Positions 30,093 through 56,391 of a DNA stretch of 64,000 nucleotides are shown piece after piece. The stretch is taken from assembly GCF_053078305.1 (NCBI RefSeq), contig NZ_CP166879.1. One strand, written 5' to 3'. The position numbers and the translations under genes are program-made. The notes under the pieces were generated by a model. It saw only the letters and a program-made list of their open reading frames with translations, made no database searches and was not told the origin of the DNA. Position 1 is the stretch's first letter. The number at the start of each line of letters is the position of its first letter.

Positions 30093-30102
30093 GAGGTGAA
30101 TC

Positions 30103-34913: not shown

Positions 34914-35031
34914 GCCGGTGACGGGGGTCGAACCCGCATAAACATATGACCCCTGAGGGTTTATGCCGCTTTACCAGTTAAGAGTACACCGGCCTGTATT
35001 TATTTTAATCAGATAGTTTTAAGGAGGCAAC

Positions 35032-35505: not shown

Positions 35506-35681
35506 TTGTTTAAGGTATGCAAATGCATTACCTTACCCCCTTCAGGCGCGTGTCGTGATTTTCTAACCTGTATTTAACGGGCTTTAAAATCTGCGTGAAG
35601 CGCCTTTGTATTTTTCCCCTGGAAGCACTTCCTGAAATCCCGCAAAACCCGCCCTGAAAATTCCCGGCTTATGCTGCCGGA

Positions 35682-37753: not shown

Positions 37754-37796
37754 ATGGTGAGCCGGGCTTACGGCCCGGCCCCTGCGGAGGGCAAAT

Positions 37797-39201: not shown

Positions 39202-39447
39202 ATGAAAACCATCTTTATCAAACCCGCGCCGGGACGCCTGATTCGTGATCCCGACACAATGCGCCCGCTGGCACAGGAGGGGGAGGAAAAGCCCTTCACG
39301 CCGTTCTGGTGTCGGCGTCTTGATGACGGCGATGTCATTCAGGCTGAAAAAGCCGCTGAAGAGGCTCCGGCTGTATCTGCGGATGCAACGACTGCGACAG
39401 AAAAACCGGTCGCCCAACCGGCATCCGATAAGGAGAAACCGCAATGA
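39202..39447 (+). CDS. hypothetical protein
   Basis: 81-aa ORF upstream of sheath. Confidence 0.4.
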   Translation: MKTIFIKPAPGRLIRDPDTMRPLAQEGEEKPFTPFWCRRLDDGDVIQAEKAAEEAPAVSADATTATEKPVAQPASDKEKPQ

Positions 39448-40946
39448 TTAATTTTGACGGGATCGGTAATGACCGCCGTATACCGCTGATTGAGGTTGAG
39501 TTTAATAACTCCATGGCTGTCACCGGCACCCCGGCACAGCGTCAGTGTGTACTGCTGTTTGGTCAGGCGAGAATGAAAGAGAATGCCGTGGACGGTACCG
39601 GTGTTCTGGATGTTCCGGTCAGGATCACCCGTGCGTCTCAGGCAACAGAACTCTGGGGGCGCGGCTCCATGATTGCCCTGATGGTGGCGGAATTTATCGC
39701 CATCAATCCTGATGCTGAACTGTATGCCATTGCTCAGGGGAATGGCACCGGACAGGCAACGGCTGCGGCCATGAATCTGACCGGAACGGTCACCCGTGAC
39801 GGGATTGTTTATGCCTGCGTGGGGGGGCGGCGTTATACACTCCCGGCACCAAAAGGTAAGAAAGGCAAAGAACTGACCGACGAGCTGGCCGCGCTGATCA
39901 ATGCCGATCCTGACGCGCCCTTCACGGCCTCCTCTGGTGCAGGAAGTGGTGATAATGGCGCAGGTCTGAAAGGGTCTCTGGGGATCACCGCCCGCTTTAC
40001 CGGTGAATGCTCCGTGCATGATGTGCGCCTGAACTATCACGACGGGGAAGCAACCCCGGAAGGAATACAGGTCGCTATAGCCTATCCGAAACAAAAAGCG
40101 GCTAACCCGGATATCACCCGAAGCGTGGCGGGTATGGGCGATCGCCAGTACAACTATGTCGTCATGCCCTATAAGGATGATGCAAACCTGAAAATCATCA
40201 GTGATGAGCTTCTGAAACGCTGGGGACCGGCCAAAATGTCTGACGGCGTGCTGTGGCTGGCACATACCGGCACGTTTGGTGAGGTGCAGGCATTCGGGGC
40301 AAAACGCAATGATTTTCTGGCGACCTGCACATCCATTCCCAAAGCCCCTGAACCGGATTACCTCTGGGCCGCGGCGGTCTGCGCCACCTGTGCACCCTCT
40401 CTGGGAGCAGATCCTGCGCGTCCGCTTCAGACGCTGGCGCTTCCGTCACGCATGGCCCCGGCTCCGGCCGATCGTCTGACGCGTGAAGAGCGTAACAGTC
40501 TGCTGTGGGGAGGGATTGCCTCGGTCAGTGTGGCTGCCGGTGATGTGGTTCAGATCGAACGTCAGGTGACCATGTATCGCCAGAACGTGTACGGCGAAAG
40601 TGATCCCAGCTATCTGGATGTGGAAACCATCTACACCCTCTCCTGGCTGCGTTATTCCCTGCGTACTTTTATCACACAACGTTTTCCGCGCCATAAACTG
40701 GCTGATGACGGGACGCCCGTTCGTGCCGGTCAGAATATCGTGACGCCGGAGATCATGAAGCTTCAGTTAATTTCGCTGGGTGAAGAGTGGGTGGAACTCG
40801 GGCTGGTCGAAAATCTGGACACCTTTAAAAAGAATCTGCTTGTGGAGCGTAATGCGTCAGATCGAAACCGTCTTGACGTGTTATGCACGCCGGATCTGGT
40901 TAACCAGTTCCGCTTCCTGGCAGCACAGATCCGTTTCATTTTGTGA
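39444..40946 (+). CDS. contractile tail sheath protein (Mu L-like)
   Basis: 500 aa, followed by tube gene. Confidence 0.8.
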   Translation: MINFDGIGNDRRIPLIEVEFNNSMAVTGTPAQRQCVLLFGQARMKENAVDGTGVLDVPVRITRASQATELWGRGSMIALMVAEFIAINPDAELYAIAQGNGTGQATAAAMNLTGTVTRDGIVYACVGGRRYTLPAPKGKKGKELTDELAALINADPDAPFTASSGAGSGDNGAGLKGSLGITARFTGECSVHDVRLNYHDGEATPEGIQVAIAYPKQKAANPDITRSVAGMGDRQYNYVVMPYKDDANLKIISDELLKRWGPAKMSDGVLWLAHTGTFGEVQAFGAKRNDFLATCTSIPKAPEPDYLWAAAVCATCAPSLGADPARPLQTLALPSRMAPAPADRLTREERNSLLWGGIASVSVAAGDVVQIERQVTMYRQNVYGESDPSYLDVETIYTLSWLRYSLRTFITQRFPRHKLADDGTPVRAGQNIVTPEIMKLQLISLGEEWVELGLVENLDTFKKNLLVERNASDRNRLDVLCTPDLVNQFRFLAAQIRFIL

Positions 40947-40954
40947 GGTAACGC

Positions 40955-41320
40955 ATGAGCGGAAAACAGTATCAGGGCACGGCCACTATCCGTGTGAACG
41001 GTCAGGAATACGAGACGCTTGAGGGGGCTACATTTTCTCCGTCAGGTTTTGAACGTGAAGTGGTGAAAGGCGCGAAAGTCTATGGTTACCGCCAGAAACC
41101 ACGTGAAGCGACGCTGGACTGCAAATTTCCGGCAGGCGGAGAAGGCTCACCAGCCGCTGATGAAATCAACAACTGGACTGCGGTCACCATCGAGTTTGTG
41201 GCGGATACCGGCGAAGTCCACATGATGACGAAGGCCTGGAGCAGTGAACCGGCCTCGCTTGACGGTGGCGGGGAGATCTCCGTGAAGTTCGCCAGCGCCT
41301 CCAGTACCCGTGTTCAGTGA
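40955..41320 (+). CDS. tail tube protein (Mu M-like)
   Basis: 121 aa. Confidence 0.75.
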   Translation: MSGKQYQGTATIRVNGQEYETLEGATFSPSGFEREVVKGAKVYGYRQKPREATLDCKFPAGGEGSPAADEINNWTAVTIEFVADTGEVHMMTKAWSSEPASLDGGGEISVKFASASSTRVQ

Positions 41321-41811
41321 TCAGGAAAAATAAAATGACCACACGTAAGAAAAAAACGGCAGTTTCCGATGCCGCCGTGATGGAGGCAATCCGGGAAGCA
41401 CTTGAGGGGGCTGATCCACGCACTGCCGGGCTGACAGAGCAACTGGCAAAGGGATATGTGGATCTGCTTGATGGTCTGCCGTTTGGTGAGACCCGTGAAT
41501 ATCGTGTCACGTTCCGGGAACTGACTGCGAAAGACAGTATTGACGCAGAAGCAGAAGCCGAGCGCGTGGTGGAGACAAACAATGGCCCGATGCTGATAGC
41601 GTCTCCGTCGTTACGCGGTGTTGCACTGCTGCGCCGTCAGATTGCCGCAGTGGGAGACATTGAGGGTCCGTTGTCACCCCGTCAGATTGGGCGGTTAAGC
41701 GAGCGCGATCTCTCCCGCCTGATGGCAGCGGTCAGCCTGCTGGATACCGCGCTTGCCGGAAAGCTGGCTGCTGACCGGGGGCGATCAGGCGCAGTGTCGG
41801 GATCAGATTGA
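41317..41811 (+). CDS. tail assembly chaperone
   Basis: 164 aa before tape measure; overlapping alternative-frame ORF 41753-41935. Confidence 0.55.
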   Translation: MIRKNKMTTRKKKTAVSDAAVMEAIREALEGADPRTAGLTEQLAKGYVDLLDGLPFGETREYRVTFRELTAKDSIDAEAEAERVVETNNGPMLIASPSLRGVALLRRQIAAVGDIEGPLSPRQIGRLSERDLSRLMAAVSLLDTALAGKLAADRGRSGAVSGSD

Positions 41812-41937
41812 AGAAGCGGCAATTATCCTGGGGATGGTGACAAAAAGCGGCCCGGAATGGGCGCTTAACCTCCCCCTGTCGCAACTTTACCGGCACTGCC
41901 GACAGACAGAAAAAATCATCAGAACGAAGCAGTAAGT

Positions 41938-44013
41938 ATGGCCCGAAATCTCAGAGCATCTCTGATAGTTGATTTGCTCGGCAATATCTCAGCCAAATCC
42001 CGCCAGTGGTCTCAGGAGCTGGGGGCATTCTCACGCTCCGGCCAGGCGGGGCTGGGTGGTCTGGGAAATGCTGCCCGCCGTGCCGGGCAGGAAACAGATG
42101 TACTCGGAAGCAGGATGCAGCGCACGCTGGCCGGGGTGCGGGGCAGTATCCGCCATGTCACTTCTGATTTTGACCGTCTTCAGGGCAGTATTACCGGCAC
42201 CATCGGGCGGATCAGCAATCTTTACGGAATGCTGGCCGGTGGTGCTGCTGTATATGGCTTTAACCGGGGATTTATTCGCCCGGCAGCGGAGATGGAAACC
42301 TATATGATTCGCCTGAACTCCCTTTACAAAGGGGATCGGGCGAAAACGGATGATGTCCGCAGGTGGGCAATACAGAATGCGAAGGAAACCACCTGGGGGC
42401 TGGCTGGCGTCATGCAGGAATATACGTCCAGTCTGGGCTTTGGTATGAGTGACAGGGAGGCCCGAAATTTTGTCACCATGCTTCAGGATCAGGGTGCCGT
42501 GGGCGGCTGGTCACTGTCCGATGCACAGGGGGCATCCCTGCAACTGAAACAGATGTATGCAAGAGGCAGTATTCAGGCGGCGGATGCAAATATTCTTGCC
42601 ACCTACGGCATTAATGCCTACCGCGTGCTGGCTGATCGTCTGGGTGTGGACCAGAAAGTGGTCAGAAAACTTGGTGAAAAAGGGCTGCTTGGGCCGGACA
42701 GTATTCGCCTGTTATTTCAGACGCTGGCGGAACAGGCCAGGGGAGCACAAAAGGACGCAATGAATTCCTGGAGTGGCCTGACGGCCATGATGGGTGACGT
42801 CTGGGACCAGTTTGCCCGGGATGTGATGGACAGTGGGCCATTTGAAAAACTGAAGGGTAATCTCAGGGGATTTCTTTCATGGGTTGACAGTGCCAAATCT
42901 GATGGCAGTTACCATTCCCTGGCGGAAAGCACGGCATCAGCCATGAACCAGGGCTTTGAGTATGCCCGTGATGCAGTGACAGGGTTTTATCAGGCGATCA
43001 GAAAGGTACGCGACACGCTTCAGGCTCTGCGGGATGCGGGCTATGGTGATGCGCTGGATCGCATTGGTCAGGGGGCACAGACTGCCGCGAAATACCTGCT
43101 GTACATGTATCTCGCCACCCGTGCCCTGAAAATGGCGCGGGCTGTCGGAACGGGGATTATACGTCCGGGTGCTGCATTGCTGGGATACGGATTATCAGCG
43201 GCGGCCTTCCTGACTTCACCTTTCCGGCGCTCTCCTCCGGCCGGAACACCACCAGGCACATCTCAGGGACGAGGGCAACGTTTTATGAACTTTCTTACCG
43301 GGGTAAATCCGGCAGCCGTTCAGCCAGTGCTTGTAACAAACTGGCCCGCAGGAGGACTGTCCGGCACCGGCGCGACCGATACATCCTCAGGCGGACGTCA
43401 GGGACGGGGCCGCAGGAAACGCGGACCGGGGCGCGGAAGACCGGTCACGCCTCCCCTGCCACCGTCCCCTGTACCACCGTCGCCCTCTTCTGGTGGGTCA
43501 GGGTTCTGGGGGCGCATGATGGGGCGCGCCGGTGGGTTGCTTTCGTCTGCCGGTAACCGCATGGGACTGGGGCGTTTCTCCGGCTTTTTCCGCAGTGCCG
43601 GTGGACTGGCTGGACGGCTGGGTGGCGGTGCCCTGTGGGCTGGCGCGATGGCAGCCCCGGTTCTGCTGGATGGCAGCGCCAGTATCACAGACAAGGGAGA
43701 AGCGGTCGGCTCTCTTGCAGGCAGTATTGCCGGTGGTGCGCTGGGGGCGGCAGCCGGACCTGTGGGGATTGCCATTGGTTCTACGGTGGGCAGCTATCTC
43801 GGTAACTATCTGGGGGGGTGGCTGACTGAAGCCTGGCAGAAATTACGGGGCAGTGATAATGAAAGCAGTGGACAGGCGGTACAAAAAGCCTCTGCCCGTG
43901 TGGAGCTGGTTGCCCCGGAAGGGTGGCAGGCTCGCAGTATTGATATTGATGACACGTCCGGTCACGGACTGGATGTGAATGTCTGGAACGGAGGGAATTA
44001 TGGCCTCTGGTGA
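41938..44013 (+). CDS. tail tape measure protein
   Basis: 691 aa, Gly-rich C-terminal segments. Confidence 0.75.
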   Translation: MARNLRASLIVDLLGNISAKSRQWSQELGAFSRSGQAGLGGLGNAARRAGQETDVLGSRMQRTLAGVRGSIRHVTSDFDRLQGSITGTIGRISNLYGMLAGGAAVYGFNRGFIRPAAEMETYMIRLNSLYKGDRAKTDDVRRWAIQNAKETTWGLAGVMQEYTSSLGFGMSDREARNFVTMLQDQGAVGGWSLSDAQGASLQLKQMYARGSIQAADANILATYGINAYRVLADRLGVDQKVVRKLGEKGLLGPDSIRLLFQTLAEQARGAQKDAMNSWSGLTAMMGDVWDQFARDVMDSGPFEKLKGNLRGFLSWVDSAKSDGSYHSLAESTASAMNQGFEYARDAVTGFYQAIRKVRDTLQALRDAGYGDALDRIGQGAQTAAKYLLYMYLATRALKMARAVGTGIIRPGAALLGYGLSAAAFLTSPFRRSPPAGTPPGTSQGRGQRFMNFLTGVNPAAVQPVLVTNWPAGGLSGTGATDTSSGGRQGRGRRKRGPGRGRPVTPPLPPSPVPPSPSSGGSGFWGRMMGRAGGLLSSAGNRMGLGRFSGFFRSAGGLAGRLGGGALWAGAMAAPVLLDGSASITDKGEAVGSLAGSIAGGALGAAAGPVGIAIGSTVGSYLGNYLGGWLTEAWQKLRGSDNESSGQAVQKASARVELVAPEGWQARSIDIDDTSGHGLDVNVWNGGNYGLW

Positions 44014-45349
44014 CGGTCGTGGTGCGTTCCGTGGTGTGCCGTTCCTCGTCTGGCGTGAGCAGCGCGAACGTGGCGGGCGAAACATTGTCCGTCGGGAATA
44101 TCCGTTACGGGAAACCGGTGGAGCAGACGATCTGGGACCTAAACTGGCTGAATTTACGTTCAGTGTACTTGTGATGGGGGATGATGTTCAGACGCAGCGA
44201 AATCGTCTGCGTGATGCCCTTCGTGCTCCCGGTGCCGGGGAGCTGCTTCACCCGGATTACGGCACGTTAAATGTGCTGATAAACAGCTTTGAAAGTCGTT
44301 ATAACGCCGCTGAACAGGGCGTGGTTGAGTTCACCATTAATGTCACGCCGGTAAGTGATGATACCGCACCTGCTGTCACACAGGACACGGCCGCCATTCT
44401 GGAGCAGAAGAGTACCACCGCGCTCGGGCAGGTTTTTGAAACCCTGGAAGCGGGCTGGACGGTGATTTCTGACGGAATGCACGATGTCCAGGCAATGACC
44501 GAAACCATCAGCGATAAGGTGTCCGCCCTGGAAAATGCCGTTTCCGGCATGGGGATTGTGCAGGATATCAGTGCCTTTACTGCCACGTTCACGGCGCTGA
44601 AAGGGAATGCCACGGCATTACTGACAGCACCTTCCCGCATGGCCTCATCTTTTGCGGGGCTTTTCAGTGCCCTGATCACCCTGCCATCGCTGCCGTCACT
44701 GTCTTCAGGAGGCCTGAATACCCGGCCCGGTGGCAGTATCGGCCGGACGACATCCGCCGTCTATCAGGGAATGCCGCAACTGTACAGGACATTATCTTCC
44801 CTGCGTTACGTGCTGGATGAGCAGGATAATCCGCAGACTCTCATCGGTCTGACACCGGCAGCACAAAAGAATATTCGTCTGATACGGGCGGTAATGCAGA
44901 GTGCTGCCGTGGTGGCCCAGGCACAGACCGTGGGAAAACTGCTGGATCAGGTTCTCAGTCAGGAAACCCTGCCGGATAGTGACGCAGCCCACCGTACCTG
45001 GCCTGTCTGGCTGGAAAGTTCAGTCGATCTTCAGCGCATTAACCGTGACTTAAGCGAAGCGCTCGAACGGCAGGTGATGACACTGTCCGGGCAGGGGTAT
45101 ACCGCCACGGCGCTGACGCTTCGTGATGCCAGACTGGCACTGACAGAGGATCTGAATACACGGGGAGTTCAGCTACCCGGTGCAACAGTAGTGACTGTAC
45201 GTACCACCGAGCCTGCACTGGTGACCCTGTACCGTGCCACCGGGAACAGTACCGGCTGGCAACGTTTTGTGCGCCGTAACGGTATTGTTGATCCGCTGTT
45301 CATTCCCGGAGGCCATTCAGTGGAGGTGATTAGTGAGCAGCAGGGTTGA
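43979..45349 (+). CDS. DNA circularization protein N-like
   Basis: 456 aa, synteny after tape measure. Confidence 0.65.
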   Translation: MSGTEGIMASGDGRGAFRGVPFLVWREQRERGGRNIVRREYPLRETGGADDLGPKLAEFTFSVLVMGDDVQTQRNRLRDALRAPGAGELLHPDYGTLNVLINSFESRYNAAEQGVVEFTINVTPVSDDTAPAVTQDTAAILEQKSTTALGQVFETLEAGWTVISDGMHDVQAMTETISDKVSALENAVSGMGIVQDISAFTATFTALKGNATALLTAPSRMASSFAGLFSALITLPSLPSLSSGGLNTRPGGSIGRTTSAVYQGMPQLYRTLSSLRYVLDEQDNPQTLIGLTPAAQKNIRLIRAVMQSAAVVAQAQTVGKLLDQVLSQETLPDSDAAHRTWPVWLESSVDLQRINRDLSEALERQVMTLSGQGYTATALTLRDARLALTEDLNTRGVQLPGATVVTVRTTEPALVTLYRATGNSTGWQRFVRRNGIVDPLFIPGGHSVEVISEQQG

Positions 45350-46466
45350 ACTGTATCTGGGCGGTGAGATTTTTTCCGGCTGGCTGACGGTGAGTGTTCG
45401 TCGCTCTCTTGAACATCTGGCGGGCTCCTTTGAACTGGGGGTAATGATGCCCGGTGTACGCCTTCCGTCATCCGTCCGTGCCGGTCAGTCTCTGGAATTG
45501 CGCATTGACGGTCAGCCTGTGATCACCGGCTGGCTGGATCAGGTCCGGCAGCGCATCAGCGCCACGCGTTTTCAGATCACGCTCAGCGGACGGGATAAAA
45601 CCGGTGACCTGGTGGACTGTTCAGCCATTCATCCGGGCAGCCAGTGGAGGAACCGTACGCTGGAGCACATTGCTTCAGATTTGTGTGCTCCGTTCGGGGT
45701 CACGGTGCGCTGGCAGGTAAATGATGCAACGGCAGCCCGGCCCTTTTCCACCTTCACACTGGAAAACTCAGAAACCGTGGCAGATGCGCTGACACGGGCC
45801 GCGAGACACAGAGGCGTCCTGGTAACCAGTAATGCCGCCGGTGAACTGGTTTTCACTCAGGCCGGCAGTCAGCGTGGCGACACGCTGACGCTGGGCGAAA
45901 ATCTGCTGGATTTGGATCACAACGTGGATCACCGTCTGCGCCACAGTGAATACCGTGTACGGGGGCACGGGCGTGGTGGTGGTCATGCCGGGGATGCACT
46001 GACAGCCGGAACGCTGGCCGCACCCGTTGGTACGGTGACAGACAGTGCCATCCACCGTTACAGACCGAAAATTGTGCTGGCGGATCATGCTGTTGATGCA
46101 GACGGTGCACGCCAGAGGGCTGTCCGGGAAATGCGCCGGGCGGTTGCCCGCTCTGTGCGCCTGACAGCCACCGTGCGGCACTGGTTTCGGGAGAACGGCC
46201 AGTTGTGGGATATCAACCTGCTGACGGCTGTCACGGCTCCCCGCACCGGAGTGGAAGAGCGTGATCTTCTTGTCTGTCAGGTGGAGTTTTCGCTGGATGC
46301 AAATCACGGCGAAACCACCCGTCTGATTCTGGCACCCCGTGACGGCTTTATTGTTCCGGCAGAGCCGGACAGCCGGGGAAACAGCGGAAGCGGAAATGCG
46401 GGTGATGTGGACGCCTTCGTGCGGGCACAGATGAAAAAACAGGGGATTAAATTCAATGATGAATGA
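45333..46466 (+). CDS. baseplate protein (Mu P-like)
   Basis: 377 aa. Confidence 0.65.
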   Translation: MSSRVELYLGGEIFSGWLTVSVRRSLEHLAGSFELGVMMPGVRLPSSVRAGQSLELRIDGQPVITGWLDQVRQRISATRFQITLSGRDKTGDLVDCSAIHPGSQWRNRTLEHIASDLCAPFGVTVRWQVNDATAARPFSTFTLENSETVADALTRAARHRGVLVTSNAAGELVFTQAGSQRGDTLTLGENLLDLDHNVDHRLRHSEYRVRGHGRGGGHAGDALTAGTLAAPVGTVTDSAIHRYRPKIVLADHAVDADGARQRAVREMRRAVARSVRLTATVRHWFRENGQLWDINLLTAVTAPRTGVEERDLLVCQVEFSLDANHGETTRLILAPRDGFIVPAEPDSRGNSGSGNAGDVDAFVRAQMKKQGIKFNDE

Positions 46467-47070
46467 CGAAGTCATCAGCCGCCTTCTGGCCCCCGTGATG
46501 CGGGGTGTTCGTCTGCTGTTCGGGCGTGGTGTACTGACCGGCACAACGGACACGCTGAAAATCCAGAATGTGCAAATCACCGGTATGGATGGTGAAACCT
46601 TTGATGACGTTGAGCGCCCCCAGCAGTACGGGCAAATCAGCGTCCCCCTGCCTGGTGCGGAAGTTTTTCTGGCCTGTGCTGGTGGACAACGGGATCAGGC
46701 CGTGGTGCTTGTGGTGGAAGACCGCCGCAGTCGCCCGACCGGACTTACCGCCGGAGATACCGGCGTGTATCACCATGAGGGGCACCGTATACGTCTGACA
46801 AAGAACGGCCGGATCATTGTGACCTGTAAGACGCTGGAGATTTACGCCGATGAAGGAGTTCAGGTGGATACACCGGAGGCTCACTTTACCGGTAATGTCA
46901 CAGTGGATAAGAACCTGCATGTCAAAGGCAATGTGTCCATTGACGGCACCGGAAGATCACAGGGGACGTTCACGATGTCCGAAGCGGTTATTGCCGGGAT
47001 CACCTATTCAGGTCATGTGCATCACGATAACGGTGAAGGCAGCAAAACGGGAGGACCAGAGAATGGCTGA
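46456..47070 (+). CDS. baseplate assembly protein V / spike (Mu gp45-like)
   Basis: 204 aa. Confidence 0.65.
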   Translation: MMNDEVISRLLAPVMRGVRLLFGRGVLTGTTDTLKIQNVQITGMDGETFDDVERPQQYGQISVPLPGAEVFLACAGGQRDQAVVLVVEDRRSRPTGLTAGDTGVYHHEGHRIRLTKNGRIIVTCKTLEIYADEGVQVDTPEAHFTGNVTVDKNLHVKGNVSIDGTGRSQGTFTMSEAVIAGITYSGHVHHDNGEGSKTGGPENG

Positions 47071-47500
47071 TATTGCTGTCGTCTGGGATCAGGGTTGTGG
47101 TTCCCTGCAACTGAACGGCGCAGATCTTCTGACGGATAACAGCCTGCTGACTGCGGTCATTATTTCACTGTTTACGGACAGGCGGGCGCTGGATTCCGAT
47201 GAAATCCCTGACGGCACCCGTGACCGTCGGGGATGGTGGGGAGACAGTTTCCGGGAGCGCCCCATTGGCTCCCGTCTCTGGCTGTTAAGCCGTGAAAAGA
47301 CGCTGTCCTCCGTGGTCAGCCGTGCACAGGCCTATGCTGATGAAGCGCTGGCGTGGCTGCATAAAAGCGGTGCTGCCACATCCGTGGTATGTCATGCCAT
47401 GCGTGTGGGGCATGATCGCCTTTCGCTTTCCGTGAAAATCACCCTGCCGGACGGAAGCAGACATCCGATGATTTTTTATGCTGATATGAAGGGGGAATGA
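47063..47500 (+). CDS. Mu gp46-like baseplate protein
   Basis: ATG at 47063 overlapping previous stop. Confidence 0.55.
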   Translation: MADIAVVWDQGCGSLQLNGADLLTDNSLLTAVIISLFTDRRALDSDEIPDGTRDRRGWWGDSFRERPIGSRLWLLSREKTLSSVVSRAQAYADEALAWLHKSGAATSVVCHAMRVGHDRLSLSVKITLPDGSRHPMIFYADMKGE

Positions 47501-48582
47501 TGCCTTATCAGCCCTTACCACTGGCGCAACTGATCACACAGACACAACAGGATATCAGCCAGCGCCTGCCCGGTTCGCAGCCGGGCGTGAATGAAACCAC
47601 CCTGAATGCCATTGCGTATGCACTGGCGGGTCTGTCAGCACAGGAGCATGAACATCTGGCCTGGATCTCCCGGCAGATAATTCCGACAGAAGCTGATGAA
47701 GCCGAACTCCTGAAACACTGCGCATTCTGGGGTGTCATCCGTAAACCGGCTTCCCGCGCTGACGGACCGGTACAACTGATGCTGACCACGGATGCAGGGA
47801 TCACGGAAGGCGTACTCCTTCAGCGAAGCGATGGTGTTGTGTACCGCATCACCGGCTCTGCGACCGGAAAAGCCGGAACACTGAATGTTAATGTGGAGGC
47901 GGAAAGTGCGGGGCGCGCTGGAAATACCCCGACCGGAACCCGCCTGTCCTTTATCACGCCACAGGCGGGCATCAACCAGACAGCCACGGTCACCGGCACG
48001 GGACTCACCGGTGGTGCGGATGTGGAAACGGTGCCGGAGTTGCTGTCCAGGCTGGTATTCCGGGTACAGAACCCGCCATCAGGGGGAACACAGTATGATT
48101 TTGAACGCTGGGCACGGGAAGTACCGGGCGTGACGCGGGCATGGTGTAAGCCTGAATGGCCTGAGGCGGGTAGTGTTGGTGTGACTTTTGTTCAGGATAA
48201 TAACCCTGACATTTTCCCCGGAGAAGGTGATGTGAAGCGGGTGGCGGATTATATCCGCAGTCATGATGATCCGGCGACGGGCCAGCCCGTTGGTCAGCCA
48301 CTTGGGCCGACAATCAGCGTGTTTAAGCTGACCAATAAGTCGGTGGCGTTTGAGATCAGGATTGTACCCAAAACGCCGGAAAATCAGGCTGCCGTAAAAC
48401 AGGCATTAACGGACCTGCTTTATAACGAATCGCGGCCGGGTGGACTTGTATTGCCTTCATCATTCTGGCGGGCTGTTGCAGGGGTGAAAGGACTGGAGGA
48501 TTTTGAAGTTCGCAGTCCGCTGAAGTCCGTGATGGCCGGAGATACAGAGTTGCTGACCGTGGGGGAAATCACATGGCTGTAA
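47497..48582 (+). CDS. baseplate J-like protein (Mu gp47-like)
   Basis: 361 aa. Confidence 0.65.
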   Translation: MMPYQPLPLAQLITQTQQDISQRLPGSQPGVNETTLNAIAYALAGLSAQEHEHLAWISRQIIPTEADEAELLKHCAFWGVIRKPASRADGPVQLMLTTDAGITEGVLLQRSDGVVYRITGSATGKAGTLNVNVEAESAGRAGNTPTGTRLSFITPQAGINQTATVTGTGLTGGADVETVPELLSRLVFRVQNPPSGGTQYDFERWAREVPGVTRAWCKPEWPEAGSVGVTFVQDNNPDIFPGEGDVKRVADYIRSHDDPATGQPVGQPLGPTISVFKLTNKSVAFEIRIVPKTPENQAAVKQALTDLLYNESRPGGLVLPSSFWRAVAGVKGLEDFEVRSPLKSVMAGDTELLTVGEITWL

Positions 48583-49130
48583 CCCTGACCCCGCATCAGC
48601 GCGCCCTGTTGCAGTTGCTGCCTGACGGGCTGGCATGGGATAAGCGGCCGTCATCCGTTCTTGCAGCTTTGTGCCTGGGCCTCAGTCATTCCACGGAGCG
48701 TGTTTCCTGGACCGGTAACCAGATGCTGGCAGAACGTTTTCCTGATTCATCCCGTCTGCTGCTGGAAGACTGGGAGCGTTATCTGGGGTTGCCGGAATGT
48801 GATATGACCGGCGCAACCATTCAGGAACGTCAGCGTTATGCCGGGAATAAATACCGGATGAAACCCTCTCTTAACCGTGAATTTTATATCCGGTTTGCGG
48901 CTGAGTTTGGTTATGAAATAGATATCCAGCCATCACCGGAATCACAATGGATCAGTATTGTGACAGTGAAGACGGCGGTGGGATACCGTCACATGAATGT
49001 ACTGGACGATATTCTTACACCACTGCGAATTTATGATGCAAGTGCGCTGGAGTGCATTTTAAACCGTTATAAGCCAGCCTGGCAGACGTTTTTATATCTG
49101 TACGAAAACAGTCATGAGGAGACGGAGTAA
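48573..49130 (+). CDS. tail protein (Mu gp48-like)
   Basis: 185 aa. Confidence 0.55.
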   Translation: MAVTLTPHQRALLQLLPDGLAWDKRPSSVLAALCLGLSHSTERVSWTGNQMLAERFPDSSRLLLEDWERYLGLPECDMTGATIQERQRYAGNKYRMKPSLNREFYIRFAAEFGYEIDIQPSPESQWISIVTVKTAVGYRHMNVLDDILTPLRIYDASALECILNRYKPAWQTFLYLYENSHEETE

Positions 49131-50017
49131 TGTATTTTGTCGACAACAATTCAGGTGTGACCGATATGCCACCACTGGCCCCCTCTCAGGGTACGCAGGT
49201 TAAATGGTTTACTGAAGGTGACGGACGCAAAGGGATCAGCCATATCGGTCAGGACTGGCTGAACATCGTGCAGGCAGAGCTGCTTGCCATTCTGACAGAA
49301 GGAAAGGTTCAGCCGGATAAGGCAAAACTGAACCAGCTGGTGACAGCCATTAAGGCAATCATTGCAGCAAACGCATACAGCCGGAAAAACAACCTTAAGG
49401 AGATTGCGGATGCAGGTGCAGAAGCACAGGCTGCTGCCCGCCGTCATCTGGGGCTGGGAGGATTATCAGGAAAAGACAGTCTGGCTGCTGCTGATGTGGG
49501 AGCACTGGAGAAATCCCGGAATTTTGACGATGTACCGGATAAACCGACGGCCCGCCTGAATCTTGATGTTTACAGTAAGGGAGAAGGCGATGAGCGTTAT
49601 CTGCGCAGGGACCAGAATGGCGCGGATATCCCGGACAAAGGAACCTTTATCGATAACCTCGGTTTACGGGAAACGGTAAATAAGGCTGCTGATGCCCTGC
49701 CATCGGGTGGAACCGCCGTGGCAGCGAATAAACTCGCCACCCCAGTAAATATTAATGGCGTTCCTTTCGACGGAACGCAGGATATCAATATTACATCGGG
49801 GATGACGCAGTCTGTGGCTGACTCACGTTATGTTCAAAGCATTCGAAGAGGTTCAAGGTCAACGATTGGAATGCAATATAATATTTTTGAAGTTCCTGAC
49901 GGATGCGTACTTACAGGGCTTGATGTCGCTGGTGATGGTAATGCAACGGTAACCGCATATTATCGCCCTGTTCAGTTTCTGATAAATGGTTCGTGGAAAA
50001 CAGCTTCCAGCGCATAA
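49130..50017 (+). CDS. tail fibre protein S (constant part plus variable part Sv in current orientation)
   Basis: 295 aa; C-terminal third lies inside the invertible segment. Confidence 0.75.
   Translation: MYFVDNNSGVTDMPPLAPSQGTQVKWFTEGDGRKGISHIGQDWLNIVQAELLAILTEGKVQPDKAKLNQLVTAIKAIIAANAYSRKNNLKEIADAGAEAQAAARRHLGLGGLSGKDSLAAADVGALEKSRNFDDVPDKPTARLNLDVYSKGEGDERYLRRDQNGADIPDKGTFIDNLGLRETVNKAADALPSGGTAVAANKLATPVNINGVPFDGTQDINITSGMTQSVADSRYVQSIRRGSRSTIGMQYNIFEVPDGCVLTGLDVAGDGNATVTAYYRPVQFLINGSWKTASSA
49655..49788. repeat. left inverted repeat of invertible tail-fibre segment (134 bp)
   Basis: Reverse-complement identical to 50906-51039 by manual comparison. Confidence 0.8.
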
Positions 50018-50096
50018 AAGTGCAGTAGTTCAAAAAACAGATTATCTGAATAAATATATGATGATTTTGTCTTTTCAACAAAAACAAGGTGAAATA

Positions 50097-50618
50097 ATGG
50101 AGCTTATTAACGTAAAACGATATTACCCGGAACACAAACCCTATGGTGAGGATGTTCAGTATTTCCAGAGTGAGGACGGAAGGGATTTTTATGAATCTCT
50201 CCCGCTTTTCACAAAGAAATACAAACTCTGTATTTCGCCTGTAACGGGTATTATCTGCTCTGTTGCTGAAGATGTCTCTGCTTTATATCCGGCAGGTTTT
50301 ACTGTTGTTGAAGTGGACGAACTGCCGGAAGGTGTGGATATTGACGGTAACTGGCAGTTTTCTGATGGCCTGATATCAAAGGTGCCGGTAAACTGGAAGA
50401 CGGTTGCTGAAAAGCGCCGCTCATCGCTGCTCCAGGAAGCCAACGAAACTGTGGATGACTGGAAAACGGAATTAAAACTGGACATGATTAGCGATGAAAA
50501 TAAATTACAGCTGACGCGCTGGATGGCGTATATCCGACAGCTTAAAGAAATGCACTTTAATGATATTGCCAGTGAGGGGCATTACCAGGCGATTCCCTGG
50601 CCGGAAAAACCGGAATAA
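50097..50618 (+). CDS. tail fibre assembly protein (U-like)
   Basis: 174 aa from ATG at 50097; inside invertible segment. Confidence 0.7.
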   Translation: MELINVKRYYPEHKPYGEDVQYFQSEDGRDFYESLPLFTKKYKLCISPVTGIICSVAEDVSALYPAGFTVVEVDELPEGVDIDGNWQFSDGLISKVPVNWKTVAEKRRSSLLQEANETVDDWKTELKLDMISDENKLQLTRWMAYIRQLKEMHFNDIASEGHYQAIPWPEKPE

Positions 50619-50652
50619 TTCAGAGGGTGCATTCAGCACCCTTTTCTGTGGT

Positions 50653-50976
50653 TTACACTGAACTTACCGTTCTCCAGGCATTATTAATATAAATCTGAAC
50701 CGGGCGATAATAGACCCCACCGATATTGTCCGCAGACCGGGAGCCGGTTTCCTGCACGTTAATACCGGAAAGCATACAACCGGAAGGTGCGCTGTAATTC
50801 CATGACATTTCATTGCCTCCGGGTGAATGATAGCTCTGTGCTCCAAGCTGAACATTCTGTACATACCGGCCATCTGCGGTTGACTGCGTCATTCCTGACG
50901 TGATGTTGATATCCTGCGTTCCGTCGAAAGGAACGCCATTAATATTTACTGGGGTGGCGAGTTTATTCGCTGCCAC
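50653..50976 (-). CDS. alternative tail-fibre C-terminal cassette (Sv'), promoterless in current orientation
   Basis: Minus-strand ORF homologous to S C-terminus (ANKLATPVNINGVPFDGTQDINITSGMTQS...). Confidence 0.7.
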   Translation of the reverse strand: MAANKLATPVNINGVPFDGTQDINITSGMTQSTADGRYVQNVQLGAQSYHSPGGNEMSWNYSAPSGCMLSGINVQETGSRSADNIGGVYYRPVQIYINNAWRTVSSV

Positions 50977-51039
50977 GGCGGTTCCACCCGATGGCAGGGC
51001 ATCAGCAGCCTTATTTACCGTTTCCCGTAAACCGAGGTT
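50906..51039. repeat. right inverted repeat of invertible segment (134 bp)
   Basis: Partner of 49655-49788. Confidence 0.8.
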
Positions 51040-51101
51040 TCAGGGATGTCGTATATCTGCTTTAAAAGGCATTTTCACCTCTTTTTAAGGAAGGTAAATA
51101 C

Positions 51102-51662
51102 ATGCTGATTGGCTATATACGCGTATCAACAAATGACCAGAACACAGGTTTACAAAGAAATGCGCTGGAATGTGCAGGATGTAAGCTGATTTTTGAAGAT
51201 AAAATGAGCGGAAAAACAACGCAGCGGCCGGGACTGAAGCGGGCACTGAAGAAACTAAAACCCGGTGACACGCTGATGGTCTGGAAACTGGACAGGCTGG
51301 GGCGCAGTATGCGCCACCTTGTTGCGCTGACAGATGAATTACAGCAACAGGGGATAAATTTTCGTAGTCTTACTGACAACATTGATACGTCAACCCCCAT
51401 GGGGCGCTTCTTTTTTCACATAATGGGTGCGCTGGCAGAAATGGAGCGTGAATTGATTGTCGAACGGACACGGGCTGGTCTTGCAGCTGCCCGTGAAAGG
51501 GGACGAACCGGTGGCAGACCCCGTCGTCTCACGCAGGAACAATACGAGCAGGTCGGGCGTTTACTGGCCGGGGGTGTCAGCCGAAGACAGGTGGCACTTA
51601 TTTTTGATATCGGCCTTTCAACCCTTTATCGTTATTATCCTGCAAGCATTTCGGAAAAATAA
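51102..51662 (+). CDS. gin: serine recombinase, Gin/Hin/Pin-family DNA invertase
   Basis: MLIGYIRVSTNDQ catalytic N-terminus, C-terminal HTH; adjacent to inverted repeats. Confidence 0.9.
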   Translation: MLIGYIRVSTNDQNTGLQRNALECAGCKLIFEDKMSGKTTQRPGLKRALKKLKPGDTLMVWKLDRLGRSMRHLVALTDELQQQGINFRSLTDNIDTSTPMGRFFFHIMGALAEMERELIVERTRAGLAAARERGRTGGRPRRLTQEQYEQVGRLLAGGVSRRQVALIFDIGLSTLYRYYPASISEK

Positions 51663-51752
51663 GACGCTCCCTTTGTTGGGCCTTTACTGAATTAACGCAA
51701 AATGGCGTTTATCGGTCTGTGGATATGATAATTCTGTTTATTCAGGAACAGG

Positions 51753-53810
51753 ATGAATATTATGACGTCCAAATGGGTTCAACTATCATCAATGCCCGGA
51801 AACTTTACCGTTAAAGTTTCCGGTGGTACAGCGGCATTTCTTGAGGCTCCTTTTCCTCCGGCTGAAACGAAAGGAGGAATGACATTTGCTGACTGTCTCA
51901 TCAGTTTTAATACACAGGATTGCCTGTGGGTAAGGCCAGTATCCGGTGATCCGAACGTGGAAATTACCGGAGCGGGTATTGGTGCTGTCATTCCGTTAAG
52001 TGCTGATGTTGCCGGTACTACTGAACCGTCAGACTGGGATAATGCTGAAACACATACCCGTCCGGCAGGAAATGAAACGGCTTCCAGCTCCCCTTCCTGG
52101 TATTACGTGATTGTTATAGCCGGTCAGTCCAATGCTTCATCTTATGGTGAAGGGTTGCCCCTGCCGGATTCTTATGATCGTCCTGATCCACGTATTATGC
52201 AGCTGGCACGCAGGAATACACAAACCCCCGGAGGTATTCCCTGCAAATACAATGAAATCATTCCAGCAGATCACTGCCTTCATGATGTTCAGAATATGAG
52301 TCTGCTGAACCATCCAAAAGCAGACCTGAAAAAAGGGCAGTATGGTTGTGTGGGTCAGGGACTTCATATTGCGAAAAAAGTATTACCGGTGATTCCTGCT
52401 GATGCCGGGATTTTACTGGTTCCCTGTGCCCGTGGCGGCTCTGCTTTTACAACCGGCGCAGTTGGCTCATTCGATCCGGCAAGTGGTGCAGCCGAGGCGT
52501 CACTACGCTGGGGAGTGGATACCCCACTGTATCAGGATCTTGTCAGTCGAACGAAAGCGGCACTTGAGGCGAATCCAAAGAATGTGCTGTTATCTGTCGT
52601 ATGGATTCAGGGGGAAGGAGACCTTAAAGCGACCCCGGCCCAGCATGGTGCCCAGTTTACTGCGATGGTGAAAAAATTCCGTGCGGATCTTGGTGCTTTC
52701 TCCGGTCAGTGTATTGGTGGTTCATCAGACAGTGTGCCGTGGTTATGTGGTGACACAACCTATGACTGGAAAGAGAAGAACCCGGCGGCATATGAAACCA
52801 TTTATAGCGGATATAAAAACCGGGCTTCCGAGAACATTCACTTTGTTCCACTGATGCACGATGAGTTCGGTAATAAAACCGCGACCAACCTGCCGGAGCA
52901 CGACCCGGATATCGCTTCTGCCGGGTATTATGGTGCGGAATCACGGGGAGATGGCAACTGGACAACAGCATCCAGGGCAACCCATTTTAGCTCCTGGGCG
53001 CGCCGTTTTCTGGTCTCAGATCGTTTTGCATCAGCAATTCTTAAATATGCAGGTCTGACCTCTGCATTTATTGCCGGTGTGGCCCCTGATGGTGAAGCCC
53101 TGCCTCAGCCCGCGCCGGGTGGAAAACCGGAAGCTCCGACAGGTAGTCAGCCAGGAAGCAGTGAGTCCCCCCAGCCGACATCCCCGTCACTCCGTACGCT
53201 GCTTTCACTTAAAGCATCAGCAGGGGAAGCCCCGGCTCAGGGATGGAAAATTACAGATGGTACAATCCAGCTGACGGACGAAGGTAAAGCGCTGACCGTA
53301 TCCAAACAAAGCGGAAAAACCTGGTCACTTACCCATGCGACCAGTGCTGCCGGAGAGCTGTTGCAGCATGGTGGTCAGTTGACCTGTAAATTCCGTCTGT
53401 CAGGTGAAGTAAAAGAAGGCCAGTTTGCTCTGGGTATTTACCTCCACACCGATACGGTCCCGGAAGGTGTAACCATGAGTGGTACAGGCACACCGTTCCT
53501 GATGGCGTATTATCTCCAGACAACAGGCGGCCAGTTAAATCTGATGCACCATAAAACAGGGGGGAATACGAAACTGGGATCATTTGGAGCCTACAATAAC
53601 CAGTGGCATACACTTGTCCTGAAGTTTACGGCGGGAAGTGCCCAGGTAACGCCTGTGCTGGATGGCACTCCGGGCCAGGCATTCCAGATGGTGAAAGATG
53701 CACTTTCCCCTGCCAAAGATACGCTGACACTGACAGATGTCACCAAAGGGGCAACTTATGGCGTGTCTTTTGAGAGCGTTGTCCTTGAGGTTAATACCCC
53801 TGCGGCATAA
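51753..53810 (+). CDS. NanS-p-like sialate O-acetylesterase (SASA-type esterase with lectin-like C-terminal domain), tentative
   Basis: 685 aa; GQSNASSYGEG esterase motif; cargo position between gin and com/mom. Confidence 0.5.
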   Translation: MNIMTSKWVQLSSMPGNFTVKVSGGTAAFLEAPFPPAETKGGMTFADCLISFNTQDCLWVRPVSGDPNVEITGAGIGAVIPLSADVAGTTEPSDWDNAETHTRPAGNETASSSPSWYYVIVIAGQSNASSYGEGLPLPDSYDRPDPRIMQLARRNTQTPGGIPCKYNEIIPADHCLHDVQNMSLLNHPKADLKKGQYGCVGQGLHIAKKVLPVIPADAGILLVPCARGGSAFTTGAVGSFDPASGAAEASLRWGVDTPLYQDLVSRTKAALEANPKNVLLSVVWIQGEGDLKATPAQHGAQFTAMVKKFRADLGAFSGQCIGGSSDSVPWLCGDTTYDWKEKNPAAYETIYSGYKNRASENIHFVPLMHDEFGNKTATNLPEHDPDIASAGYYGAESRGDGNWTTASRATHFSSWARRFLVSDRFASAILKYAGLTSAFIAGVAPDGEALPQPAPGGKPEAPTGSQPGSSESPQPTSPSLRTLLSLKASAGEAPAQGWKITDGTIQLTDEGKALTVSKQSGKTWSLTHATSAAGELLQHGGQLTCKFRLSGEVKEGQFALGIYLHTDTVPEGVTMSGTGTPFLMAYYLQTTGGQLNLMHHKTGGNTKLGSFGAYNNQWHTLVLKFTAGSAQVTPVLDGTPGQAFQMVKDALSPAKDTLTLTDVTKGATYGVSFESVVLEVNTPAA

Positions 53811-54082
53811 TCGTGACGGCCGGGAATTTATCCGGCTGTAACATCAGTTAATAAGAGTGAGGCTTATATGACATATATAAACGTCTGCCTGCTGTATTTC
53901 TGCACGGTGGTTTGTTGTCTGTTGCTTGTCAGCGGTGGTTATAAAATTATTCGCAATTATTTTCGAAATAAAATTGATGCAGCTGCCGAGGAAAAGATAA
54001 AAAGCGGTGCTGTAATGCCGCAGCCGAAAGACTCCGGTCAGATTTAATTTTTTGTGAACCAGAAAAGGAAAGGAGAATATTC

Positions 54083-54328
54083 ATGCCAGAGATTAAAGGC
54101 ACGGTTACTGAAGAGCTTGTCAAACAGGCACTTTATTCTGAAGAAGTGAACCGCGTGCTGAAGGCGCAGGTTCGCAAGGATTTTGAGGCACAAATCGACG
54201 CATATGTTGATGAAGTGCTGGCCCGAATGGTTGGCCATTCTCCGGCTGAAAACAGCACGGAGAATGAGCCTCAGCCCGTAGAGCAACCAGAGCCGGTTCA
54301 GCCCGGAACTGACAGTGCCATGATGTAA
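54083..54328 (+). CDS. hypothetical protein
   Basis: 81 aa, AAGGAG RBS. Confidence 0.4.
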   Translation: MPEIKGTVTEELVKQALYSEEVNRVLKAQVRKDFEAQIDAYVDEVLARMVGHSPAENSTENEPQPVEQPEPVQPGTDSAMM

Positions 54329-54402
54329 CAATACAAACCGACAGCTTCTCCTGTCGGTTTGATTTTCATGGGCGATGTATATACCAGTCAGAGGAAATAA
54401 TC

Positions 54403-54603
54403 ATGGACAAGAACAAAAAGCAGCCCGATACCAAAGGTCTGGAAATATTAAGCGCAGAAATTATCAATGCGCTACGTTCAGGACTTGATGAAAATACATT
54501 ACAGGATCGAAACTTCACCACTGCAATGTGGATAGCGATGCAGATCCTGTGTACCCCAAGATGCGCTATTTTTGCGGTTCGTGAGGGTCAGTTGACTCGC
54601 TGA
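54403..54603 (+). CDS. hypothetical protein
   Basis: 66-aa ORF; competing antisense ORF 54566-54796. Confidence 0.3.
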   Translation: MDKNKKQPDTKGLEILSAEIINALRSGLDENTLQDRNFTTAMWIAMQILCTPRCAIFAVREGQLTR

Positions 54604-55258
54604 TTGCCCGAATTACATCAGAAAAGCACGCGTTCCATAATTGCATAGCTGATGAATCACCAGCTGTATGAAAAGAGGTAAAGACACAACTGGTGGATGT
54701 CATTGCTGCAATTGTGATATCAGCTGCAATTCGCGCAGCCTGTAACTTTTGGTCGGTGGTCAGTTTATCCATTTTCTCCTGCCTGAACAGATGCATCTCT
54801 GCTTTACAGGAGGCCGGGGAATATCATAGGATACACCACGAGCTCAGAGTGAAGCATTGATGCAGTTTTTTACAGATTGACCCAGAATAGTTCGCGCTAT
54901 CTGAGTCGCCATTTATGTAGTCCCGAAGTAAAGCATTGATGCAAACTTGTCTAAATCGGCCCAGCATAGTTCCAGCTATGCTGGGTTTCCCTTTTATGTA
55001 GTATCCTGTTGATTTGAAACATACTACATATACGCGCGATCCTACCTTCACTGGATAAAAAGTCAATAAAATGATCATTTTATGATCGTTTTCACCACCT
55101 AACTCTTCGTTTTCTTTAAGTAAATAATCACCGCCCTGAATCATTGTTGATGACTTTTCAATCTATTTGTTGTATCAATTAAACAAATCGAATCGATCGT
55201 TTTTGTCGATCGATTGCATGAGAAAGGCATCAACAACAAAGCAGGAGGTTATGCGGCC

Positions 55259-55459
55259 ATGTATCGAAACATACGGTGCCGACACTGCAATAAGCTACTG
55301 GCACGGGCCAGTTTCAGTTATCTGGAAGTAAAATGTCCGCGCTGTAAAACCCTCAATCAAATCACATCTCCGAGCGCCACAGAGCACCCCACATACACAA
55401 GGAAATCCTGTCGTGGGGAACAGAAAGCAAGTCACATCCCGTATCATCAGCACGCCTGA
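55259..55459 (+). CDS. com: Com zinc-finger translational activator of mom
   Basis: CRHCNKLL...CPRCK zinc finger; overlaps start of mom. Confidence 0.75.
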
Positions 55460-56150
55460 ACTTATTCGCTATAACGACAATATCGTTGGTTATGGTTCCC
55501 GTGAGTTGCGGGTTGAGACAATAAGTTGCTGGCTGGCCAGACTGGTTATCGTCAATAAACATTACAGCCACCGTTTCGTAAATAACTCCTACCTTCATCT
55601 GGGCATATTTTCAGAACGGGAACTTGTTGGCGTAATGCAATGGGGTTACGCCCTTAACCCAAACAGTGGTGCACGCGTCGTAACGGGTACGCAGAACCGA
55701 GAATATATGGAGCTGAACCGGCTATGGATGCATGACTGTATGCCGAGAAACTCCGAATCAAGGGCAATCAGTTACGCGCTCAAGCTAATCAGGCAGCTTT
55801 ATCCGCAGGTACAGTGGGTTCAGTCGTTTGCAGATGAGCGTTGTGGCTGTCTTGGTGTCGTGTATCAGGCAAGCAATTTTGATTATGTAGGCAGCCATGA
55901 AACAATATTCTATGAACTTGATGGCGAGTGGTATCACGAGATTTGCAGGAATGCCATTAAACGAGGCGGACAACGAGGTGAACATCTGAGGGCTAATATC
56001 GACAGAGCCAGTGTGCATAAGTTCCGACAGTTTCGTTACATCCGGTTTCTGAACAAGAGGGCCAGAAAACGCCTCAACACAAAGCTATTCAAAGTCCAGC
56101 CTTACCCAAAACCACAAACAGTTAAAACTGGTTTGAAAGAGAGTGAATGA
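55413..56150 (+). CDS. mom: DNA modification protein Mom
   Basis: 245 aa at extreme right end after com, as in Mu. Confidence 0.7.
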
Positions 56151-56277
56151 GCGCTTAAAAACTCATTCTAAAACTCAAAAGAAAAGCGCCGATTTAGTAT
56201 CAAATAAGTTGCGTATCGGCGTTTTTCAGCGGTATCAAATGAAATGCAAATCGGTATCAAAAAAATCGCCGCGCTAT

Positions 56278-56391
56278 ATGCCGCTGACCACAGCATTTAA
56301 ACAGAATATTGAACGTATCCGGCGTGAACGCCTGCCAGAAGAACTGGCATATGCGCTGAAACAACAACTGAGGATTGCGATAAAACGATGA
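56278..56391 (+). pseudogene. Z: tail protein Z, downstream part resuming after Mu-like insertion
   Basis: [36 protein letters not shown] matches remembered lambda Z C-terminus. Confidence 0.8.

Follow-up and report, generated by a model that had tools for sequence, protein, structure and literature searches.

A NanS-p-type sialate O-acetylesterase with a lineage-specific N-terminal domain in a Mu-like prophage of Escherichia coli

The window analyzed here (64,000 nucleotides of contig NZ_CP166879.1, NCBI RefSeq assembly GCF_053078305.1) holds a Mu-like, Sp18-like prophage of a Shiga-toxin-type Escherichia coli, located at 16941..56278 on the + strand (39,338 bp), with ends placed by reference to Phi804-3, a published Mu-like prophage of O157:H7 FRIK804. 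Near the right end of this prophage, the gene at 51753..53810 (+) encodes a protein of 685 amino acids (aa) which, judging from its homology, is a sialate O-acetylesterase of the NanS-p kind composed of three domains. This esterase is part of a conserved module, and it is probably expressed late and released when the phage lyses the cell. The enzyme is already annotated in databases, and its distinguishing feature is a domain swap at the capsid-anchor position, where the DUF1737 domain of the related esterases from lambdoid Shiga toxin (Stx) phages is replaced by a domain specific to the Mu-like lineage.

Domain architecture and catalytic residues

The gene is an uninterrupted open reading frame (ORF) that begins with ATG, has an AGGA Shine-Dalgarno sequence 5 nt upstream of this start and another in-frame ATG at 51762, and contains VIVIAGQSNASSYGEG/AGQSNASSYGEG, with Ser126 within the GQSN motif. 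A pseudogene reading was ruled out by the intact ORF and the invariant catalytic residues described below. The UniProt entry A0AAW4EZG5, named 'Sialate O-acetylesterase', is 100% identical to the window protein, and close relatives are named by NCBI either 'sialate O-acetylesterase' or 'DUF6645 domain-containing protein'; the homologue in the Sakai reference genome, ECs_4993, is still a 'hypothetical protein'.

The SASA/SGNH esterase domain occupies aa 106-432 (52068..53048, +). A structure search aligns aa 108-432 end to end with E. coli NanS, also known as YjhS, the 9-O-acetyl-N-acetylneuraminate esterase (PDB 3pt5, E=3.6e-110), and Pfam places a SASA domain (PF03629) at aa 119-315 with an i-Evalue of 7.5e-13, finding besides it only DUF6645. 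The protein also matches PHROG 143, a family of unknown function (E=1.5e-273), and gives a weak, partial match to a PHROG 'tail protein' family (1e-6, aa 211-315), while no NCBIfam family was matched. At the amino acid level it is 50-61% identical to the NanS-p proteins of Stx phages. The earlier note on this DNA, made from the sequence alone, had proposed an esterase of the SASA/SGNH type with a lectin-like C terminus and a resemblance to NanS-p, and the searches agree with it on each of these points.

The SASA (CE6) family is characterized by GQSN in Block I and (H)QGE in Block III, the glutamine next to the catalytic serine forms an inverted oxyanion hole, and NanS is devoid of the usual Block V aspartate (PMC9487903). 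In the window protein, Block I corresponds to G124-Q125-S126-N127, with Ser126 encoded by nt 52128-52130, and is invariant across 13 alleles with identities down to ~53%. Block III reads I285-Q286-G287-E288 (Q286-G-E288 at nt 52608-52616), where the Q, G and E are invariant across the same alleles and NanS has MQGE at the aligned position. As for Block V, the equally invariant His411 (nt 52983-52985) lies in a 'THFSS' stretch that aligns with 'SHFSS' of 3pt5. The numbering of the catalytic residues, as well as the list of tested NanS-p alleles, was taken from reviews. In the proposed mechanism, Ser126 would be the nucleophile and His411 the base, and Gln125 would be held by Q286-G-E288 within a SASA-type oxyanion hole. 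The domain would take 9-O-acetyl groups, and probably other O-acetyl groups too, off sialic acids such as 5-N-acetyl-9-O-acetylneuraminic acid (Neu5,9Ac2) on mucin glycans. For NanS-p homologues, experiments have demonstrated activity on Neu5,9Ac2 and on mucin O-glycans, as well as an advantage in growth (reviews).

The catalytic domain is followed by a Pro/Ser/Gly-rich linker (aa 433-480, 53049..53192, +), predicted to be disordered with a predicted local distance difference test score (pLDDT) below 50. Residues S, T, P, G, A, E, Q and N make up 83% of this linker, which is the least conserved segment of the protein (13-39% identity among diverged alleles). The C-terminal domain (aa 481-685, 53193..53807, +) is a beta-sandwich in the model, and its residues 481-682 match the NanS-p C-terminal domain 6yp6 (E=1.2e-42), with Pfam assigning aa 537-647 to DUF6645 (E=1.5e-25). 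Reviews describe the 6yp6 domain as a jelly-roll of the lectin-like type and a likely carbohydrate-binding module. By analogy, the flexible linker would connect the esterase to a jelly-roll domain by which the enzyme is presumably kept on its glycan substrate. This is also the most variable domain between alleles, with 34-44% identity, and such hypervariability could be mined for lectins of differing glycan specificities.

The full-length AlphaFold model shows an all-beta N-terminal domain, the alpha/beta esterase and the C-terminal beta-sandwich, separated by two disordered Ser/Thr/Pro/Gly-rich linkers (aa 82-115 and 433-480). No signal peptide or transmembrane segment was found in the esterase: over the first 70 residues hydropathy peaks at 1.34, without a hydrophobic h-region.

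The N-terminal domain (aa 1-105, 51753..52067, +) is what sets this protein apart from the lambdoid NanS-p. It consists of a small all-beta barrel with strands between aa 9 and 81, followed by the first of the disordered linkers and, when modelled alone, is again a small all-beta barrel (pLDDT 75, predicted template modelling score 0.68). In lambdoid NanS-p this place is taken by DUF1737 (PF08410), whose fold consists of one helix and three strands (phi24B study). The earlier note had named DUF1737 among the domains to look for; however, Pfam gives no DUF1737 match ahead of aa 119, BLASTP aligns the protein with Min27 gp43 and phage 1717 gp44 from aa 106-109 onward and not before, and the modelled fold is a different one. 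Database relatives accordingly fall into two architectures, one without DUF1737 (669-704 aa, 99% query coverage) and one with it (84%). The domain is thus shown to replace DUF1737 and to be specific to the Mu-like lineage, and across the loci examined the type of N-terminal domain matches the type of phage without exception.

Outside of these esterases the first ~105 residues are nearly an orphan sequence. When 1.84 billion cluster representatives were scanned in full with HMMER, five matched, all of them esterase fragments except for one repeat protein. Fold matches are weak: in BFVD they comprise uncharacterized phage proteins of ~90 aa (best E 7.7e-3), and in AFDB50 standalone, uncharacterized proteins of 75-83 aa from Salmonella, Citrobacter and other Enterobacteriaceae. 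AFDB50 also contains a 777-aa Salmonella 'sialate O-acetylesterase' that holds the Mu-type N-terminal domain at 36% identity. Among 229 small prophage ORFs, HHalign found no relative of the domain (maximum probability 11.8%), nor did it relate the domain to either of two small ORFs that precede the esterase gene in the distant Mu-like locus L013.

Seen against known systems, the closest counterparts are the lambdoid NanS-p proteins, such as L0105/z1466 of 933W, gp84 (vb_24B_21) of phi24B and gp43 of Min27. Like them, the window protein is a prophage-borne combination of SASA and DUF6645 (~52% identity over aa 106-682), is devoid of a signal peptide, is probably expressed late, and is followed by genes for DUF1378 and DUF826 proteins. 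It is also, like them, longer than NanS (685 aa against 337 in the 3pt5 chain) owing to additional N- and C-terminal domains. Unlike them, it holds an unrelated all-beta domain of ~80 residues instead of DUF1737, it is carried by a transposable Mu-like myovirus, it lies between gin and com/mom rather than between stx/Q and the holin gene, and its putative promoter would be C-dependent as in Mu, in place of a Q-antiterminated PR'. The window protein would be expected to work like NanS-p, and the two have two of the three domains and two neighboring genes in common. The similarity to NanS itself is limited to the catalytic domain, which aligns over the whole length of NanS with the GQSN, QGE and His motifs kept, whereas NanS is a single domain of 337 residues without the N-terminal and lectin parts. 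NanS is encoded by a chromosomal gene of sialic acid catabolism and not by a phage-borne one.

A conserved module between gin and com/mom

The esterase gene lies 90 bp downstream of the gene for a gin-type DNA invertase (51102..51662, +; PHROG DNA invertase match, 5e-94), on the same strand. Downstream, near the right end of the prophage, are found com and mom (55259..56150, +), of which mom (55413..56150) has a Mom match at 8.6e-84 and com (~55259..55459) a match to Com, in agreement with the annotation of relatives. In canonical Mu (NC_000929), gin ends at 35673 and com starts at 35768, leaving a gap of 94 bp without any gene, as compared with ~3.6 kb in the window prophage. The placement of a large gene between gin and com/mom of a Mu-like phage, at a point where canonical Mu has none, had been claimed in the earlier note and stands. 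One refinement is that the esterase is not an occasional cargo gene of this element and belongs to a conserved module of the whole Sp18-like lineage.

This module involves two further genes. The first encodes a small membrane protein of 59 aa (53868..54047, +), which matches PHROG 494 (E=4e-29), has relatives annotated as DUF1378, and contains one strongly hydrophobic N-terminal segment (Kyte-Doolittle hydropathy 2.46). The second encodes a DUF826 protein of 81 aa (54083..54328, +; PHROG 311, E=9e-30). A predicted bidirectional, terminator-like hairpin with an 11-bp stem (54334..54361) closes the module.

The order gin, esterase, DUF1378, DUF826, com/mom was found in O91:H21 FWSEC0008, in Sp18 of Sakai and in FRIK804, and the same slot with the same three genes is present at the loci of alleles that are 59%, 52% and ~53% identical to the window esterase. 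Even a relative with as little as 27% identity in the N-terminal domain lies directly after gin with the same three genes, its carrier being a Mu-like prophage of a more distant kind. Min27, a lambdoid Stx phage, carries in succession stx2AB, esterase, DUF1378, DUF826 and holin; its esterase is 52.5% identical to the window protein, its DUF1378 protein 53%, and its DUF826 protein 40% (40-47% for the DUF826 counterparts of Stx phages in general), so that the small proteins are about as diverged as the enzyme. The three genes are thus shown to be a standard part of Sp18-like Mu-like prophages in an order common to lambdoid Stx phages. In both kinds of phage, the DUF1378 and DUF826 genes (53868-54328 in the window, 5465-5930 in locus L003) always follow the esterase, and this constant pairing suggests a functional link, for example in release or processing.

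Only a comparison of proteins reveals the synteny with Stx phages. When the DNA of the downstream part of the module (53811-55220) was searched against phages, only two Mu-like insertions matched. Because DNA matches are confined to Mu-like insertions and the small proteins are as diverged as the esterase, the module is old in both phage lineages and was not recently transferred.

Regarding its distribution, the 5' segment of the esterase gene is found in 204 of 5426 complete E. coli genomes at >=90% nucleotide identity, and the Mu-type transposase gene in 247 of them (232 with >=80% coverage). The remaining transposase-bearing genomes may carry diverged esterase alleles missed by megablast. 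In the assembly collection, one esterase allele alone is indexed in 1937 blocks. A Sp18-like Mu lineage with an esterase-lectin cassette is therefore present in ~4% of complete E. coli genomes, mostly Shiga toxin-producing strains, with up to four copies per genome. Surveys of NanS-p keyed on DUF1737 or on adjacency to stx may miss this Mu-like source of sialate esterases. The literature searched, which did not include some key primary papers on NanS-p, contained nothing linking NanS-p with Mu-like phages, ECs4993 or Sp18.

Comparison of alleles domain by domain reveals a mosaic. Three relatives (P0003, P0013 and P0041) share 94-96% identity with the window protein in the N-terminal domain, 66-68% in the esterase domain, and only 34-40% in the lectin domain. 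Over 92 classified sequences, the median identity of the esterase domain is 71% across the two architectures, against 72-77% within them, and clusters at 80% identity hold both architectures. The lectin domain of the window protein is 57-60% identical to that of some DUF1737-type proteins, compared with 34-44% for nearly all Mu-type alleles. The Mu-type protein P0034 has esterase and lectin domains that are 93% and 100% identical to those of DUF1737-type proteins; it represents one recent cross-type recombinant, although it comes from a single 3.1-kb contig that could be an assembly chimera. Given these mosaic identities and mixed clusters, it can be deduced from the alignments that recombination between prophage types exchanges the catalytic and lectin parts, whereas each phage type keeps its own N-terminal domain. 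The Mu-type and lambdoid proteins are, in this sense, a natural domain-swap experiment on whether the N-terminal domain sets which virion carries the enzyme.

Probable late expression and the possible roles of the enzyme

The 90-bp spacer between gin and the esterase gene contains a late-promoter-like element (51683..51729, +), formed by TTTAC (51683-87) and GCAAA (51697-701) separated by nine nucleotides and followed, after a 22-nt spacer, by a -10-like TATGAT (51724-29), without a -35 box. Two blocks of this spacer, TGAATT..CGCAAAA and, ~21 nt further on, TATGMT, persist even in the most diverged locus. The bipartite motif is kept in 8 of the 8 Mu-like loci fetched for comparison, including the one with the diverged spacer.

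In its strict form, the bipartite pattern has two sites in the window, the one upstream of the esterase and another that precedes the head protease gene I by 7 nt, and FRIK804 has the same two. When generalized to TGAWWT-NN-CGCAAAR-N20-22-TAYGMT, the pattern has three matches in the window, against 0.12 expected, the third site preceding the lysozyme gene by 32 nt and following immediately on a gene for a Mor/C-family activator (ORF 27032-27457). The three sites, all on the + strand (27455-27497 for lysozyme, 35633-35675 for head protease I and 51683-51729 for the esterase), consist of a 19-bp imperfect dyad, TTTNC-N9-GCAAA, ending 22-23 nt before a -10-like TAYGMT hexamer, which places the dyad at approximately -53 to -35. 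The motif is informative only in this bipartite form with its spacing and -10 element: the upstream half-motif alone, searched as a 15-mer with up to three mismatches, gave 21 matches against 24.9 expected, hence no enrichment. A C-binding pattern for Mu (TTATN6ATAA) had no matches and was dropped.

This arrangement resembles that of the Mu late operons. The C-dependent promoters of Mu (Plys, PI, PP and Pmom) contain a -10 but no -35 element, and require a 19-bp element between -52 and -34 with an imperfect dyad centered at -43.5 (PMC2582627). The likeness lies in the geometry, a dyad of ~19 bp ending near -34/-35 of a promoter without a -35 box; the sequence of the motif differs from the C-site pattern above. 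The three sites probably serve this Mu-like lineage as its C-dependent late promoters, and from the match of the upstream motif to the geometry of Mu late promoters we infer that the esterase module is a late transcription unit. Contrary to canonical Mu, with its four late promoters and its gene-free gap between gin and com, the window prophage would hold an additional late unit.

In the proposed sequence of events, the module would be transcribed late from a promoter dependent on a C/Mor-type activator and, because the enzyme has no signal peptide, it would reach its substrate when the phage lyses the cell. Once de-O-acetylated, the mucus sialic acids would be open to attack by sialidases and to catabolism through the Nan pathway in sibling lysogens that survive, and the released virions in the mucus may also be helped. 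Lambdoid nanS-p is itself a late gene, up 1-2.4 logs on induction with mitomycin C (reviews). Should the late-promoter reading be right, the benefit would accrue to the population through lysis of a subpopulation, as in the case of Shiga toxin.

Several points speak against the overall explanation. The motif was derived post hoc from the sequences in which it is counted, it is absent upstream of P and com in the window prophage, and the more distant loci L013 and L014 did not show it with the same pattern. Between gin and the esterase gene no terminator is predicted, leaving possible a low-level read-through expression in the lysogen. The full-length AlphaFold 2 model is only moderately confident (pLDDT 64, from 13 sequences). 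The searched literature contains no enzymatic or expression data for the window protein or for any Mu-type allele; its activity is deduced from relatives of 50-60% identity, and its substrate specificity could differ from Neu5,9Ac2, as some SASA enzymes act on acetylxylan.

The main alternative, less likely than the above, is that the Mu-specific beta-domain anchors the esterase to the Mu-like virion, on the capsid or another surface, as the counterpart of DUF1737 in phi24B gp84, and that the particles carry or shed the esterase-lectin part. The phi24B protein is a capsid decoration hexamer bound to the hexons via DUF1737, with the enzyme part cleaved off after release (2026 preprint). In the window protein, a small domain with a long disordered linker replaces DUF1737 at exactly that position, and the domain's pairing with phage type is free of exceptions in the loci examined, at the same time as the esterase and lectin domains swap between types (71% median identity across types, 72-77% within) and diverge even between alleles with 94-96% identical N-terminal domains. 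The probable late promoter common to the head gene block, and the existence of standalone enterobacterial proteins of 75-83 aa with a weakly similar fold, as is the case for DUF1737, point in the same direction. Against this alternative, the prophage has no paralogue of the domain, the canonical Mu virion is built without such a gene, the pairing with phage type can also be explained by linkage to the adjoining gin region, and the only recent cross-type recombinant, P0034, is the possibly chimeric contig mentioned above. Were it true, the lambdoid and Mu-like lineages, two unrelated groups of temperate E. coli phages, would each display one freely recombining esterase-lectin cassette via lineage-specific adaptor domains. 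The gene would then not be one of lysogenic conversion but part of a modular 'enzyme display' system suited to sialylated mucus.

Lysogenic conversion in its classical form was the role suggested by the earlier note. Here, the gene would be expressed in the lysogen, either by read-through from gin or from a constitutive promoter of its own, allowing the host to grow on 9-O-acetylated sialic acid, a role put forward for lambdoid NanS-p. The position on gin's strand, 90 bp downstream of it and without a predicted terminator between, is compatible with such read-through; NanS-p alleles from EDL933 and from O104:H4 enable growth on Neu5,9Ac2 (reviews), and the guanine plus cytosine (GC) content of the gene (51%) is closer to the E. 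coli average than that of the structural genes of the prophage (54%). On the other hand, the esterase has no signal peptide and a late-promoter-like element lies directly upstream of the gene; the lambdoid nanS-p genes are late and strongly induced with the phage, and the phi24B homologue is a virion protein. The suggestion is therefore questionable and we regard it as rather unlikely: given the late-promoter-like motif and the absence of a signal peptide, the enzyme is more likely to be made late and set free by lysis than to be produced in the lysogen.

The enzyme could also act on the bacterial surface, removing O-acetyl groups from O-antigen or capsule glycans, those with sialic acid among them, and so aiding adsorption or destroying receptors on the debris of lysed cells, much as receptor-destroying esterases of viruses do, a possibility raised for NanS-p in a review. 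The weak PHROG match shows that SGNH domains do occur in tail proteins, and a hypervariable lectin domain is what would be expected of a determinant of host range or glycan specificity. Some E. coli O-antigens, such as that of O104, contain O-acetylated sialic acid. Nevertheless, this role is improbable for the window protein, since Neu5,9Ac2, free or bound to mucin, is the substrate of its closest characterized relatives, the gene is located outside the tail-fibre/invertible segment and encodes no tail-attachment domain, and the hosts span many serogroups, including O157, O111 and O91.

Lastly, a structural tail-fibre or tailspike component encoded beside the S/U genes is very improbable and was rejected on position and domain content: despite the proximity to the tail-fibre genes and gin and the weak partial PHROG 'tail' match, the gene lies beyond gin and outside the 158-bp inverted repeats bounding the invertible segment 49655-51039, its homologue in lambdoid phages adjoins stx and lysis genes rather than tail genes, and neither Pfam nor the fold search found tail-fibre domains.

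The variable right end of the prophage

The flanks of the prophage match lambda-like head and tail genes (Nu3, E, FI, Z and U). In the literature, Sp18-like Mu-like phages are described as often inserting into other prophages, with no mention of the esterase.

The invertible, G-like tail-fibre segment (49655-51039) is bounded by inverted repeats of 158 bp at 49655-49812 and 50882-51039, which are 96.8% identical. Its orientation is opposite to that of Phi804-3 in FRIK804, to which it is 97.3% identical in reverse, and this inversion indicates that Gin is or was active.

Between the module and com, two adjoining ORFs on the - strand (54566-54796 and 54824-55144; 76 and 106 aa; PHROG 26524) look like a single frameshifted gene of ~154 aa. 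This gene is intact in FRIK804 and in Sakai (ECs_4996), and is annotated as 'frameshifted' in O91:H21 FWSEC0008.

In some Mu-like relatives, the position of mom is occupied by a gene for a C5 DNA methyltransferase of 350 aa (PF00145), in one case still after com. It is found at 9792-10844 in locus L008, 7761-8813 in L009 and 4521-5573 in L010; in L002, 10306-11358 is a matching 350-aa ORF only. This looks like the swap of one anti-restriction DNA-modification gene for another at the right end.

The right end as a whole (49000-56278), which holds the variable tail-fibre part, gin, the esterase module and com/mom, has a GC content of 47.6% compared with 54.4% for 16941-49000, which is consistent with a recombination-prone accessory region.

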